Shown here in pieces: positions 2,582-21,250 of a stretch of DNA of 64,000 bases; positions within the stretch are counted from its first letter, which is position 1, and every line of letters begins with the position of its first letter. Made by a program: the position numbers and the translations under genes. The notes under the pieces were generated by a model. That model saw only the letters and a program-made list of their open reading frames with translations, did no database searches and was not told where the DNA came from. The stretch comes from an uncultured bacterium (GTDB taxonomy: Bacteria; Cyanobacteriota; Vampirovibrionia; Gastranaerophilales; Gastranaerophilaceae): NCBI GenBank assembly GCA_902475545.1, contig CABRZP010000003.1, positions 72,422 to 136,421 of the forward strand. Reading direction: 5' to 3'.

Positions 2582-3475
2582 ATGACAGATTTTACAACAA
2601 CTTATGGTGCTTTTATTCCTGAAATTTGGAGTAAAAAGCTGAACAACATGTTAGAAAAAAATTGTGTTATGCTTCAATGCGTTAACAGAAATTGGGAAGG
2701 CGATATCAAACAGCAAGGTGATAAAGTTAAGATTATTACCCCTGCGGATGTTACTGTTTCAACTTTAACTTCCAGTGATATTGCATACTCATCTCTTACT
2801 CCGACATCAATGGAATTAGAGATTGATCAGAAAAAATTCTTTGCATTTAAAATTGACGATGTTGCTAAAGTTCAAACAAATGGCGATATTATGGAAGCAC
2901 ATCTTAATAATGCGAAAAAAGCAATAGAAGAAGTTCAAGATTCTTATTTACTTGCAATGCACACAAATGTAACTGAAGCTAACACAGTAGGTTCAGAAGC
3001 ATCACCAATTACATTAAACAAATCTACTATTTATGAAAACTTTGTCAAATTGTCATTAACATTAAAAAATTCCGATGCTGTATATGCAGGAGTTCGCCCT
3101 TGGGTTGTAATTAACCCTAACATTGAAGCATATTTACTTCAAAGCCCTGAATTTATTAGTGCACATAACGTTGCCGATAAGACCTTAAGAGAAGGTTCAA
3201 TTGGCAGAATTGCAGGTATGGATGTACTCGTAAGCACTAATTTAACCGAGGTTAACGGCAAATATTATATTTTAGCAGGTACTAATGATGCTATTACTTT
3301 TGCATCTCAACTTGCTAAGATTGAAAGTTTAAGAGACAAAGATAGCTTTTCAGATTTAGTAAGAGGATTGTATTTGTATGGTGCAAAAACAGTTCAACCT
3401 AAAGCTTTAGCAAAAATGATTGTTTCAACCACCAGTGCTGCAGATACTTCTTCAGATCCGGACGGGCAGGAATAA
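2582..3475 (+). CDS. Major capsid protein (P22-coat-like / HK97-fold)
   Basis: 297 aa. N-terminal FIPEIWSKKLNNMLEKNCVMLQCVNRNWEGDIKQQGDKVKI is typical of the P22_CoatProtein family. Strong RBS, and a 13-bp hairpin follows the gene. Confidence 0.7.
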   Translation: MTDFTTTYGAFIPEIWSKKLNNMLEKNCVMLQCVNRNWEGDIKQQGDKVKIITPADVTVSTLTSSDIAYSSLTPTSMELEIDQKKFFAFKIDDVAKVQTNGDIMEAHLNNAKKAIEEVQDSYLLAMHTNVTEANTVGSEASPITLNKSTIYENFVKLSLTLKNSDAVYAGVRPWVVINPNIEAYLLQSPEFISAHNVADKTLREGSIGRIAGMDVLVSTNLTEVNGKYYILAGTNDAITFASQLAKIESLRDKDSFSDLVRGLYLYGAKTVQPKALAKMIVSTTSAADTSSDPDGQE

Positions 3476-16769: not shown

Positions 16770-17984
16770 TTATAAAAAGTGATGCATTTTTTCTTTTTTT
16801 GTATCTAAATATCTTTGATTGTAAGGTGTAATTTCAGATGATAATTTCACAATATCATTAACTTTCAGTCCGTAACCTTCCAATCCGATAATTTTTTTAG
16901 GATTATTTGTCATTAAATTGAAGTTTGTATATCCCAAATCGACAAGAATTTGAGCTCCAGTGCCATAATCTCTTAAATCTGATTTGAATCCTAGTGAAAG
17001 ATTTGCTTCAATAGTATCCTGCCCTTCTTCCTGAAGTTTGTAAGCTTTGATTTTATTACACAAACCAATTCCTCTGCCTTCGTGATCTGTAAGATATACA
17101 ACCGCACCTTTTCCGTATTCGTTTAAATACTTAAGTGCGTTAAACAATTGAGAATTACAGTCACATTTCAAAGAATGAAAAACATCGCCTGTTAAACACA
17201 TACTATGAACTCTTACAGCCGGAATTTTGTCAGAACCGTCGTCTTTAACAAGTGCAACATGTTCAGTTCCATTAATTTGGTTTTTGTATGCATACAGTTT
17301 AAATTCACCATAAGGTGTTGGCAGCATTGTTTCAGCTTCACGGGTTACAAGTTTTTCAGATTTGAGTCTATAGGCAATTAATTCCGCAACAGAAATAAAT
17401 TTCATGTTATGTTCGTCAGCAAATTGTCTTAAATAATCTCTTCTTCCCATGTGCCCGTCAGGAGCCATAACTTCACACATTACACCTGCCGGTCTGTGTC
17501 CGCAGAGTTTTGCTAAATCAACGACAGCTTCGGTATGTCCTGTACGTTCTAATACTCCGCCCTTTCTGGCAACGCAAGGGAATAAGTGTCCCGGACGTCT
17601 CAGGTCTGATGGTTGAGCATCTCGTGCAGTTGCAACTTCAACGGTTTTTGCTCTGTCATAAGCTGAAATTCCTGTTGTTACACCATATTTTTCTGCTGCG
17701 TCGATACTTACAGTAAATGCTGTTTTCATACCTTCACTATTTTGGTCTACCATTTGAGGCAAATCCAATTGTTCTGCGATTTCACTTGATATTGCAAGAC
17801 ATATTAACCCTTTGACTTCAGATGCCAGAAAATTTATTAATTCAGGTGTAACTTTTTCTGCTGAAATTATTACGTCACCTTCGTTTTCTCTATCTTCATC
17901 ATCTGCCACAATAATAGGTTTTCCTTGTGCAAAATCTTGCAAAGCGTCTTCTATACTATCAAATTTAAATTGTCTATCTTCCAT
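16770..17984 (-). CDS. ribBA: Bifunctional 3,4-dihydroxy-2-butanone-4-phosphate synthase / GTP cyclohydrolase II
   Basis: DDEDRENEGD, TGHTEA and HSMCLTGDVFHSLKCDCNSQL...HEGRGIGL are canonical RibB and RibA motifs. Confidence 0.95.
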   Translation of the reverse strand: MEDRQFKFDSIEDALQDFAQGKPIIVADDEDRENEGDVIISAEKVTPELINFLASEVKGLICLAISSEIAEQLDLPQMVDQNSEGMKTAFTVSIDAAEKYGVTTGISAYDRAKTVEVATARDAQPSDLRRPGHLFPCVARKGGVLERTGHTEAVVDLAKLCGHRPAGVMCEVMAPDGHMGRRDYLRQFADEHNMKFISVAELIAYRLKSEKLVTREAETMLPTPYGEFKLYAYKNQINGTEHVALVKDDGSDKIPAVRVHSMCLTGDVFHSLKCDCNSQLFNALKYLNEYGKGAVVYLTDHEGRGIGLCNKIKAYKLQEEGQDTIEANLSLGFKSDLRDYGTGAQILVDLGYTNFNLMTNNPKKIIGLEGYGLKVNDIVKLSSEITPYNQRYLDTKKEKMHHFL

Positions 17985-18628
17985 TATACAAATCCATTCT
18001 CTTGTAAAAAACTCATACTAAGTTGGCTTTCTTTATTATCATTCGCAGATAAAAATTTTTCAACATATTTGCCTAAAATATCAGTTTCTATATTTACAAA
18101 ATCCCCAATTTTTAGAATTTTTAGGTTAGTATTTTCAAATGTATGAGGAATAACCGCAACCTCAAATATATTATTGTAAGTTTTTGCTATAGTTAAACTT
18201 ATACCGTTTACAGTTATTGAACCTTTATGAACAATATATTTCTGCTGATTTTCAGGTAGTTCAAATGTAAGATTGTAAAAATCAGTTAATTGTTCTTTAG
18301 CAATAAGTTTTCCTTTGCAATCTACATGACCAGAAACAATATGTCCACCAAGACGTGAAGTTGGAGTTAATGCTCTTTCCAAATTTACATAATCATCTTT
18401 TTTTAAATTTAAAAATGTAGTAACAGAAAGAGTTTCATCACTTACTCTTGCAGTAAAGCTATCATTTGTACGTTCAGTAACAGTATCACAAACTCCGTTA
18501 ATTGAAATACTATCACCTATATTAGTTCCATCAAGAACTGTATTACAGCTCACAACAATAGTTGCCCCATTTGATGTTTTAGAAAATGATTTAACTTTCC
18601 CGATTTCTTCAATGATACCCGTAAACAT
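17984..18628 (-). CDS. ribE: Riboflavin synthase alpha chain
   Basis: MFTGIIEEIGKV start and the duplicated lumazine-binding repeat (SISINGVCDTV / SITVNGISLTI). Confidence 0.93.
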   Translation of the reverse strand: MFTGIIEEIGKVKSFSKTSNGATIVVSCNTVLDGTNIGDSISINGVCDTVTERTNDSFTARVSDETLSVTTFLNLKKDDYVNLERALTPTSRLGGHIVSGHVDCKGKLIAKEQLTDFYNLTFELPENQQKYIVHKGSITVNGISLTIAKTYNNIFEVAVIPHTFENTNLKILKIGDFVNIETDILGKYVEKFLSANDNKESQLSMSFLQENGFV

Positions 18629-18736
18629 AAATATAGCTTATCATATTTTTATTTTAATTGATACAAAAATGACGAAACTTTTACATAAATAATATTATCC
18701 ACAGGATAATCAAAGAAAGGTTCGGAAACGTAGTTT

Positions 18737-19077
18737 CTGATAACTCGTATCATTTGTTCAGCGTTTTTCTCTTTTACTCGCAATAAAGCGTATAGCGAGC
18801 AGAGGGCGAACGCTCAAGGCGTTGAGCCTTGACGGTAGTCCCGTTTAATGCGAGCTAACAAGCGGAGAAAGAAATGAAGAAACAGAATTTATTTTAAAAA
18901 GAATCTTTCTTTGTTCACTTTTTTAACTTGGTTACTCGCATTAAACGGCATTGCAGTCAGGGCTCAACACCCTGCCTTTCAGCCTCTGCTCGTAATCCGC
19001 TTTTTGATTGCGATGCAAAAAGAAAAAGTAGAACCGAAAAAGAAAAACACGCTTGATTAAATGGCTCGAGTTATCAG
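18737..19077. repeat. 341-bp imperfect palindrome (foldback element or structured RNA candidate), G+C-enriched
   Basis: The ends CTGATAACTCG and CGAGTTATCAG are perfect complements. Shared blocks between the arms: CGAGCAGAGG (18796 / 18983, reverse-complemented), GTTGAGCC, CCGTTTAATGCGAG (18841 / 18935, reverse-complemented). The centre is near 18907. Confidence 0.8.
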
Positions 19078-19143
19078 GGGATTCCCCTGAACCCCCTCTA
19101 TTGAAATATCGGTTTGATATTTACCCCTAATATTATTTATGGA

Positions 19144-19175
19144 AAAGCAGGAGATAATAAATTATCTCCTGCTTT
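19144..19175 (-). terminator. groEL terminator hairpin
   Basis: AAAGCAGGAGATAA-TAAA-TTATCTCCTGCTTT, a 14-bp stem 27 nt downstream of the groEL stop. Confidence 0.6.
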
Positions 19176-19201
19176 CAATTTGTTTAGAATTATGTTTGTT
19201 A

Positions 19202-20960
<1,759 letters not shown>

Positions 20961-20965
20961 TTTGA

Positions 20966-21250
20966 TTACTCTATTACTGCTAATGCATCTTTGATTGATA
21001 AGATTTTGTATTCAACACCATCAACTTTAACATCTGTTCCTGAATATTTAGCATAAAGGATTGTGTCCCCAACTTTAACATCCATAGGTTCTCTTTCGCC
21101 TTTGTCGTTAAGTTTACCTAAACCAACAGCAACAACTTCACCTCTTTGAGGTTTTTCTTTTGCACTATCAGGAATAAAAATTCCACCTGAAGTTTGTTCT
21201 GTTTCTTCTACAACTTTAATAACGATTCTTTCGCCTAACGGTTTAATCAT
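20966..21250 (-). CDS. groES: Co-chaperonin GroES
   Basis: [13 protein letters not shown]...[22 protein letters not shown] is the canonical Cpn10 sequence. Confidence 0.97.

Follow-up and report, generated by a model that had tools for sequence, protein, structure and literature searches.

A Palindrome Upstream of ribE in an Uncultured Gastranaerophilaceae Bacterium Probably Reflects Two Insertions of a Small, Structured Mobile Unit

Introduction

In an uncultured bacterium of the Gastranaerophilaceae, a 341-bp imperfect palindrome separates groEL from the ribE-ribBA genes, in the place where an FMN riboswitch (RFN element) would be expected. A preliminary description, made from the sequence of a 64-kb stretch of this genome (hereafter the window, whose positions are used throughout), interpreted the palindrome as a structured RNA in the ribE leader, with a mobile repeat as the alternative. 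The locus therefore raises two questions: what the palindrome is made of, and whether it has anything to do with riboflavin.

Results and Discussion

An Imperfect Palindrome between groEL and ribE

The palindrome (18737–19077) lies between the intrinsic terminator of groEL and ribE (Table 1). In a BLAST comparison with its own reverse complement, 271 nt align at 72% identity (E 8e-32), and a repeat search recovers a chain of inverted repeat pairs that covers the full 341 bp. The folding energy on either strand is approximately −160 kcal/mol, compared with −98 ± 6 in shuffled sequences (z = −10.7). G+C content is 0.44–0.47 inside the palindrome, versus 0.315 for the window as a whole. The palindrome and its G+C enrichment are therefore real, as the preliminary description had reported. 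Also present as described are the terminal 11-mers CTGATAACTCG (18737–18747) and CGAGTTATCAG (19067–19077), the shared blocks CGAGCAGAGG (18796–18805 and 18983–18992), GTTGAGCC and CCGTTTAATGCGAG (18841–18854 and 18935–18948), and the flanking genes groEL and ribE-ribBA, which are confirmed by Pfam. The groEL terminator exhibits a compensatory G:C to A:T change between strains. Several assemblies have contig breaks at the edge of the palindrome, and a relative without the palindrome also breaks nearby.

Table 1. Features of the ribE locus (positions in the 64-kb window).
Feature	Positions	Strand	Remarks
ribBA	16770–17984	−	Pfam-confirmed; downstream of the palindrome with ribE
ribE	17984–18628	−	Pfam-confirmed; neighbour downstream of the palindrome
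Conserved non-coding block	18629–18774	−	Directly 5′ of ribE; contains TTATCCACAGGATAA; outside the ~77-nt unit
Whole palindrome	18737–19077	none	Composite: older inverted repeat with one unit in each arm
Left outer arm, older inverted repeat	18737–18787		Ends ...ACTCGCAATAAA, the insertion point; 18737–18774 lies inside the conserved ribE-upstream block; 93% identity in relatives without units; kept in single-copy haplotype L094
Left copy of ~77-nt unit	18788–18864	+	Subfamily GGGCGAAC...GGUAGUCCC; opposite strand to groEL/ribE
AT-rich centre, older palindrome	18865–18923		Found in every haplotype, single-copy ones included
Right copy of ~77-nt unit	18924–18999	−	Subfamily GGCUGAAAG...CUGCAAUGCC; groEL/ribE strand
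Right outer arm, older inverted repeat	19000–19077		Read on the − strand, ends ...CATCGCAATCAAAAA(G), the insertion point matching that of the left arm
groEL intrinsic terminator	19144–19175	−	Stands between groEL and the palindrome
groEL	19202–20851	−	Pfam-confirmed; upstream of the palindrome
groES	20966–21250	−	Pfam-confirmed; upstream with groEL

The Palindrome Contains Two Members of a Widespread Family

Alignment of the two arms reveals three invariant blocks flanking a variable hairpin. The helices beside this hairpin differ between the arms yet stay paired (UAGC/GCUA versus UUAC/GUAA; GGG/CCC versus GGC/GCC). Using the invariant blocks as a seed pattern, we scanned species-representative genomes, viral contigs and metagenome contigs. 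The first set yields a single true homologue, in an uncultured gut bacterium (L006), the second 11 true copies and the third about 100, and there is no match to the unit in the cultured phage genomes of INPHARED. A covariance model of 85 positions, termed R1, matches the fetched metagenomic and viral loci 83 times, corresponding to 81 distinct copies.

Within the window, R1 matches the left copy at 18783–18867 (94.6 bits, E 1e-26) and the right copy at 18922–19005 (78.3 bits, E 1e-21). The third-best match scores 14.5 bits, such that these two copies are the sole members of the family in the window. The unit had initially been taken to be ~165 nt long, but is really ~77 nt; the remainder of each arm belongs to an older inverted repeat that also exists without the unit. 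A scan for sigma-70 consensus sequences reveals no convincing promoter for either copy.

The bacteria that carry family members are low in G+C and live in gut and anaerobic habitats, and their phages carry members too. The cluster and homologue names obtained for the host contigs comprise one Candidatus Gastranaerophilaceae and one Heliobacteriaceae bacterium, the rest being labeled simply “bacterium”. The first of these names belongs to a member of the RibBA cluster and assigns the organism of the window to that family (Melainabacteria). No family of Rfam 15 matches the unit, even with the laxest filters, in the region, the window, 16 related loci or excerpts of ~100 nt. The matches in those scans are plant-miRNA long-hairpin artefacts, tRNAs and a 16S rRNA gene, and Rfam 15 applied to the 64 kb returns two tRNAs only. 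The conserved strings of the unit do not occur in the literature searched, where a search for structured RNAs of Melainabacteria likewise found nothing.

An Invariant Core Is Combined with Covarying Helices

Family members share the consensus (A)GCGGAUUGC-GAGCAGAGG-(3-bp helix, internal loop YGAAR or YGNARN, variable hairpin)-CCGUUUAAUGCGA-GCAACCAAG, in which the first two elements form the fixed 5′ end and the last two the fixed 3′ end. In a second type of unit, of which L052 is an example, P1 is GCGAGC/GCGAGC and includes tandem G.A pairs, and the sequence closes with ...CAAGAC. Members are 60–85 nt long and combine a core of ~30 invariant unpaired bases with three covarying helices: P1, which closes the unit, P2 of 3 bp, and P3, the variable hairpin.

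In an alignment that was fitted to R1, and thus flatters the structure, 84.9% of cells at the proposed pairs are paired, compared with 59.0% in shuffles, and none of 500 shuffles attains the observed value. By the same counts, 393 cells carry double-sided changes (112 in shuffles), and compensatory changes are seen in 19 of 20 pairs. The covariation score is 0.546, versus 0.158 for shuffles and 0.04–0.08 when registers are slid by 1–3 columns. In the raw sequence listing, the variable hairpin consists of unrelated sequences that are all able to pair. Covariation supports the hairpin CAAGGC-GUUGA-GCCUUG, and the hairpin GCTCAA-GGCG-TTGAGC given in the preliminary description is in the wrong register. 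The attenuator-like alternative pairing proposed there leans partly on that contradicted register.

The mismatches tolerated in the helices are strand-asymmetric, with 98 G.A/A.G versus 8 U.C/C.U and 34 GU/UG versus 18 AC/CA, which indicates that the fold is read from one given strand, as RNA or single-stranded DNA, and not as a cruciform. One reading frame of the unit would encode ADCEQR...PFNASNQ. A protein-coding unit was rejected because core lengths of 52–70 nt break the frame and the stems covary.

The Unit Is Gained or Lost Precisely

The loci compared are metagenomic assemblies throughout. Among contigs of this population and its sister populations, the spacer takes four forms. Both copies are present in the window, L001, L002 and L062. 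The right copy (18924–18999) is missing from L076 and L031, and the left copy (18788–18864) from L094, whereas both are missing from L133 and L135–137, whose RibE is 81–86% identical to that of the window. Strains that lack one copy have flanks that are 94–99.6% identical, those of L076 being 99.6% identical to the window. The older inverted repeat and its AT-rich centre persist in single-copy haplotypes (L094, L076), and the outer arms still match as an inverted pair when the units are left aside. For L133 and L135–137, homology to the window (93%) is confined to the stretch between the ribE start codon and 18774, and a different gene lies upstream.

At the right junction, the filled site reads CAATCAAAAAG(CGGATTAC...CCAAGTTA)AAAAAGTGAAC and the empty site CAATCAAAAAG/AAAAAGTGAAC (L076, L031). 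At the left junction, the filled site CTCGCAATAAA(GCGTATAGC...CTAACAAGCG)GAGAAAG corresponds to CTCGCAATAAA-A-GAGAAAG in L094, the empty junction there being CTCGCAATAAAAGAGAAAG. Junctions at the ribE locus are thus precise to within 1 nt. Empty and filled sites are also found among Mu-like phages. L015 and L058 carry a 75-nt copy (25 codons) in frame and antisense within a C5-methylase gene, along with a 60-nt degenerate copy (20 codons) in frame and sense within a portal gene; both are absent from phage L012.

No target-site duplication is seen in the four empty/filled pairs from the ribE locus and the Mu-like phages, and the unit has no terminal inverted repeats, its ends being GCGGA... and ...CCAAG(NN). 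Over 36 distinct sites, positions −4 to −1 relative to the unit are A or T in 86–98% of cases, with variation among the 4 nt on the left (AAAG, TAAA, GAAA, CTTT), and the 3′ end extends to CAAG-(C/A)-A-G. The unit is therefore a discrete, structured, strand-specific and non-coding entity that is gained or lost precisely, in the absence of duplications or terminal inverted repeats. Two of the empty/filled pairs come from almost identical strains, implying that the unit moved or was excised very recently. The “empty” alleles could, however, be precise excisions instead of ancestral states.

Two Probable Insertions into an Older Inverted Repeat

Both copies lie directly 3′ of the equivalent arm sequence TCGCAAT(C)AAA, and consequently point towards one another. 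Their membership in different subfamilies and their equivalent positions in the older inverted repeat argue for independent insertions instead of a local duplication, and two insertions at equivalent sites point to a target preference. The palindrome is thus an older inverted repeat that harbors two oppositely oriented, presumably separately inserted units of ~77 nt.

The explanation that we consider probable is that these are two independent insertions of a non-autonomous, structured mobile element. A shorter inverted repeat upstream of ribE, with arms 18737–18787 and 19000–19077 around an AT-rich centre, would have existed first, and each arm would then have received one insertion after TCGCAAT(C)AAA. 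The single-stranded fold of the unit, as DNA or RNA, might be recognized by trans-acting machinery that prefers A/T-rich or hairpin-loop sites, and the unit is presumably retained at positions where its presence in a transcript causes no damage or where reading frames stay open. The settings in which it is found are intergenic DNA, hairpins, and in-frame positions within phage genes, and L023 holds another convergent pair of units. Transcription of the region, if it occurs, would yield a long hairpin, located 3′ of the groEL terminator and 5′ of the ribE promoter, as the sole local effect.

A search of the neighbourhoods reveals no mobilizing enzyme beside the units. Their only recurrent neighbours are the MuA-like and MuB-like genes of transposable phages. 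MuA/MuB chemistry gives 5-bp duplications, and none are found at the units, so MuA and MuB are a poor fit as mobilizers.

Further observations count against the mobile-element explanation. All strict-pattern matches for this species come from the ribE locus, the one locus in the 64 kb, and so low an apparent copy number (as judged from 64 kb and a strict pattern) is unlike that of REP elements or MITEs. In addition, a hand tally of phage contexts finds the unit in sense orientation in 9 of 10, which points to a life as RNA. Invariance of ~30 bases across loci is commoner in catalytic or machinery-binding RNAs than in transposase substrates, which usually co-vary with their enzyme.

Could the Unit Be Primarily a Functional RNA?

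The strongest rival reading holds the unit to be primarily a functional RNA: a new, small self-cleaving ribozyme, or else an element for RNA processing or stability by which mRNA ends are set. Mobility would be secondary, and the unit would have spread horizontally as hammerhead, twister, hatchet and theta ribozymes have. This reading overlaps with the mobile-element explanation and does not exclude it; on the sequence comparisons made here we regard it as unlikely, though deserving of serious attention. Invariant junction bases among freely covarying stems recall a ribozyme or aptamer, and the strand specificity of the fold agrees with this.

Genomic contexts lend further support. Often only 17–28 nt separate the unit from a start codon downstream, and the Shine-Dalgarno sequence directly follows ...CAAG. 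The genes downstream include those for a Mu-F head protein, a scaffold, a tail chaperone, a MuB-like ATPase, a binding protein and a dehydrogenase, as well as rplT, rpsQ, thrC, ispD and others. Near groEL of another species (L093) and rpsO (L086), the unit is located at the stop codon or in the 3′ UTR, ahead of a terminator. One copy resides in a 16S rRNA leader, 54 nt ahead of the gene, and tRNA-linked copies start ~65 nt past the tRNA and precede a repeated tRNA 3′ end. Tandem arrays exist in L064 and L095. The sporadic, phage-rich distribution resembles that of theta ribozymes, and in phage operons the unit is mostly in sense orientation.

Other features sit uneasily with a simple version of this reading. 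Relative to crude ORF calls, orientation is mixed, with ~58% of copies on the same strand; antisense copies and in-frame coding copies exist, and one of the two copies in the window is antisense to both neighbours. A sense-oriented, active self-cleaver would cut the portal mRNA in the phages described above. Moreover, none of the Rfam ribozyme families matches the unit, and on inspection the topology does not fit that of HDV-like ribozymes, given that GAGCAGA has no upstream P1 partner and J4/2 is not C-initial.

Comparison with small self-cleaving ribozymes (twister, hatchet, pistol and HDV-like theta) reveals real similarities: a size of 60–90 nt, an invariant core with variable stems, sporadic occurrence in gut phages, some tRNA-linked copies and functionally unrelated neighbour genes (PMC10879173). 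The points just listed, namely Rfam, topology and the antisense and intra-ORF copies, set the unit apart. In HDV-like and theta ribozymes, the fold is a nested double pseudoknot (P1-P2-P3-P1.1-P4), J4/2 begins with a catalytic C, and the cleavage site abuts the tRNA 3′ end. An HDV-like theta ribozyme was accordingly rejected for the unit, which has no match in the Rfam HDV clan, lacks the P1 partner, and is separated from the tRNA by a gap of ~65 nt instead of adjoining its 3′ end.

The L006 copy is convergent with an Abi_2 gene and overlaps its 3′ end. The abiF RNA motif has been described (PMC12373285), and an abiF motif or type III antitoxin RNA, which would be placed upstream of an Abi_2 gene, was considered and rejected: the copy in L006 has the wrong orientation, the unit bears no resemblance to the abiF motif, Rfam gives no match, and no Abi gene lies beside the unit at any other locus checked.

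A more specific proposal, that the unit represents a new RNA class with a catalytic or guide-like core, is a somewhat slimmer prospect still. Such an RNA could be a ribozyme that trims transcripts near ribosome-binding sites, rRNAs and tRNAs, or could assist its own duplication-free insertion. In that case, no smaller mobile element with an RNA-encoded function would be known. Overall, we place the unit with the small non-autonomous structured repeats, with a real but minority chance that it constitutes a new functional RNA class.

A Single Inverted Duplication Is Improbable

The preliminary description had seen two diverged inverted copies. Two inverted, structured units are indeed present, but their subfamilies and their separate presence and absence indicate that they are not duplicates of each other. 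The corresponding scenario is a single local inverted duplication of a ~165-bp segment followed by divergence, in which case the one-copy haplotypes would be later deletions. It finds support in the arms, which align end to end at ~72–77%, flanks included, with flank divergence similar to that of the unit.

We nevertheless consider this scenario improbable, because the two copies are not each other's closest relatives and have distinct subfamily loops (CGAAC/GGUAGU versus CUGAAAG/CUGCAAU). They are 72.9% identical to each other. The left copy is closest to that of L062, at the same locus, and to L045 (85.9%); it is 78.8% identical to the L006 copy over the 85-nt model span and 92.6% in a 68-nt BLAST segment. 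The right copy is 79.1% identical to that of L034. The subfamily loops of each copy recur in copies from unrelated contexts: the P3 hairpin and internal loops of the left copy are also those of L045, L006 and L010, all from other contexts, and the CUGAAAG...AAUGCC subfamily includes the right copy. Furthermore, either copy can be missing to within 1 nt in nearly identical flanks, and the older inverted repeat is found with just one unit (L094, L076).

Comparison with Known Small Repeats

In its behaviour, the unit most closely resembles the Rickettsia palindromic elements (RPEs), which are small non-coding hairpin units with no known transposase that occur both in intergenic regions and in frame within unrelated protein genes (PMC10969869). 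The unit likewise inserts in frame, as in the methylase and portal genes, a shared behaviour that is not evidence of homology. RPEs measure ~100–150 bp, are confined to Rickettsia and number tens per genome; the unit is 60–85 nt, is low-copy in this window and also inhabits phages. Unlike RPEs, it has an invariant unpaired core that, together with the covarying stems, resembles a functional RNA. This comparison concerns behaviour and not sequence.

REP/BIME/REPIN elements, mobilized by RAYT (HUH) transposases, and palindrome-associated elements derived from IS200/IS605 function as single-strand hairpins and produce no target duplication. They may stand alone, in tandem or in inverted pairs that make long hairpins, in transcribed intergenic regions. 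The unit shares these arrangements and the lack of target duplication, and its doublets also form long hairpins. However, REPs are species-specific, high-copy sequences of 20–40 nt with a 5′ GTAG-type tetranucleotide, and the sameness of the unit's core across many loci argues against species specificity. Similarly, IS200/IS605 ends require a fixed 4–5-nt target, whereas the left flank of the unit is only A/T-rich, with no such target, and the loci examined yielded no RAYT or TnpA gene. ERIC and Correia-type repeats are imperfect palindromes that lie in transcribed regions in either orientation and affect mRNA processing (PMC10969869). They differ from the unit in having terminal inverted repeats and, for Correia, TA duplications, in being restricted to particular lineages, and in lacking a conserved multi-junction core.

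A classical MITE or REPIN, with terminal inverted repeats, target duplications and many near-identical copies, is a very improbable identity for the palindrome. The 341-bp object does have 11-nt terminal inverted repeats and a REPIN-like doublet-hairpin shape. Even so, the left terminal repeat derives from ancestral sequence 5′ of ribE, and the perfect repeat is not conserved, since a 98%-identical strain has CTGAAGACTCG. Neither the 341-bp object nor the 77-nt units are bordered by target duplications, and the units, unlike a MITE, have no terminal inverted repeats. Self BLAST and R1 find no other copy of the palindrome or unit in the 64 kb, and the palindrome flanks recur in none of the fetched loci. 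The suggestion of a mobile repeat was thus close to the truth, except that the target-site duplications of a MITE are absent.

No Link to Riboflavin

There is no FMN riboswitch (RF00050) at the gathering threshold in the 64 kb, nor at E ≤ 10 in 18400–19400 or 18770–18880, in agreement with the earlier failure to find an RFN core. Upstream of ribE, the unit is absent from the other relatives examined, including those with 81–86% identical RibE. More distant relatives have merely a 58-nt spacer before ribE, following a co-oriented gene. No association of the unit with flavin genes was seen; at other loci, unrelated genes follow it. The similarity to an FMN riboswitch is therefore one of position upstream of ribE only, without a sequence or structure match, gene-linked conservation or a link to flavin genes elsewhere.

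The 146 nt immediately 5′ of ribE are 93% identical between species, compared with 84% for ribE itself and 67% for its third codon positions. A candidate extended −10 element (TGATAAGCT) is located 6 nt before the ribE ATG, and TGnTA(A/G)(G/A)CT-N6-ATG is kept in the window, L138 and L140. From this motif and the conserved block we infer a promoter beside the ATG. ribE has no Shine-Dalgarno sequence, and this, along with the extended −10 near the ATG, suggests that the palindrome lies upstream of the promoter, probably outside any leader.

A ribE-specific cis-regulator, such as an unconventional flavin riboswitch or attenuator acting in place of the RFN element, had been an understandable proposal for a G+C-rich, structured palindrome located upstream of ribE-ribBA where no RFN is present, but it merits almost no credence, because the unit is missing before ribE in all other relatives examined, near-identical strains do without one or the other copy, unrelated genes carry it upstream elsewhere, and the conserved block with its putative −10 element puts the promoter downstream of the palindrome. 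Neither copy is needed for ribE, and the unit at this locus is not a riboflavin sensor. For annotation, ribE of this lineage lacks an upstream RFN element and may be leaderless.

Conclusions

REP, ERIC and RPE sequences are known small non-autonomous repeats. A discrete element of 60–85 nt that combines ribozyme-like conservation with four clean empty/filled site pairs provides a tractable case for the movement of repeats in which duplications and terminal repeats are lacking. The family offers defined ends, a fold backed by covariation, and natural before-and-after alleles with which movement can be studied. The 81 distinct copies, for which R1 serves as a working model, also supply RNA-family databases with a motif that has been unannotated. 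Without such a model, similar motifs in low-G+C genomes will continue to pass for riboswitch candidates.

Conserved sequences upstream of ribE

Between species, the non-coding block immediately upstream of ribE (18629-18774, minus strand) is 93% identical, compared with 84% for ribE itself and 67% for the third codon positions of that gene. This difference in identity argues that the non-coding block is under stronger constraint than ribE. Two short inverted repeats lie within the block (see table).

No Shine-Dalgarno sequence is present at ribE, whose start is at 18628 (18629-18645 in the window). Instead, the arrangement TGnTA(A/G)(G/A)CT-N6-ATG is kept in three lineages (18629-18645 in the window, and about 2980-3003 in the fetched loci L138 and L140). 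Because this sequence is conserved and a Shine-Dalgarno sequence is missing, we suggest that it may be an extended -10 promoter that yields a leaderless ribE mRNA.

Genomic setting and variation of the large palindrome

The gene upstream of ribE is a different one in each of four related lineages, and thus the large palindrome between groEL and ribE (18737-19077) is located at a recurrent synteny breakpoint. Many independent assemblies end where the palindrome begins on its left side, or shortly within it; population variants or low coverage may account for these breaks.

Several differences among strains and relatives were observed in this spacer. Between the window and the 98%-identical strains L001 and L002, the stem of the groEL terminator (19144-19175) differs by a compensatory G:C to A:T change. 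These two strains also have one A more in CAGGGGAATCCCCTG, a small perfect palindrome (19074-19088) overlapping the large one at the latter's right end. At about 18764, a 24-nt indel polymorphism, aaagagaaagaaacgcaagcaaag, is situated between AAAGAGAAA direct repeats. The 24 nt are present in L031, which has only the left copy of the ~77-nt structured unit, in L094, which has only the right copy, and in L133, which has neither; they are absent from the window and from L076, another left-copy locus. In the L133-type relatives, a perfect 19-bp hairpin with the loop TTGCGAG occupies the site of the indel.

A second short hairpin repeat family recurs in related genomes (L094, about 2400-2480, and the flanks of L102, L112 and L084), with the types CCTGAAC-TTG-TTTCAGG and TTCCGAA-CTTG-TTTCGGAA.

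Features upstream of ribE and unit copies beside tRNA and rRNA genes
Feature	Locus	Coordinates	Strand	Remarks
DnaA-box-like perfect palindrome TTATCCACAGGATAA	window	about 18696-18710	+	within block 18629-18774
Hairpin GAAACGTAGTTTC	window	18725-18737		within block upstream of ribE
ribE upstream neighbor	window	19202-20851	-	groEL
ribE upstream neighbor	L094			unknown gene with terminator
ribE upstream neighbor	L133	852-2471		divergent SpoIIIAA/R3H gene
ribE upstream neighbor	L138	2130-2942		co-oriented gene, 58 nt away
Contig ends	L003, L004, L005, L141-L144, L134			80-192 nt upstream of ribE
Type 2 copy	L022	4777-4945		adjoining tRNA gene
Type 2 copy	L063	1575-1736		adjoining tRNA gene
Type 2 copy	L036	2590-2785		adjoining tRNA gene
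Type 2 copy	L021	2810-2960		adjoining tRNA gene
Unit copy	L052	416-500	-	rRNA operon leader, 54 nt upstream of 16S rRNA gene 5' end

Unit copies in other gene contexts

The copy in L006, a species-representative genome, is convergent with an Abi_2 gene and overlaps its 3' end. Directly upstream of this copy (700-770) are a perfect sigma-70 promoter, TTGAAA-17-TATACT, and then a terminator-like hairpin.

Other copies adjoin tRNA genes or lie in an rRNA operon leader (see table). Those beside tRNA genes belong to the type 2 variant and carry an additional 5' module, which consists of GAGAAC, a hairpin and GUUCGAGCG, in that order. After each of these copies, the T-stem and acceptor 3' strand of the tRNA recur as a direct repeat that pairs with the 5' flank (for example, CGCGAU...AUCGCG). 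The arrangement looks like either an att-type duplication around an insert of ~190 nt or a tRNA-like tail on the RNA.
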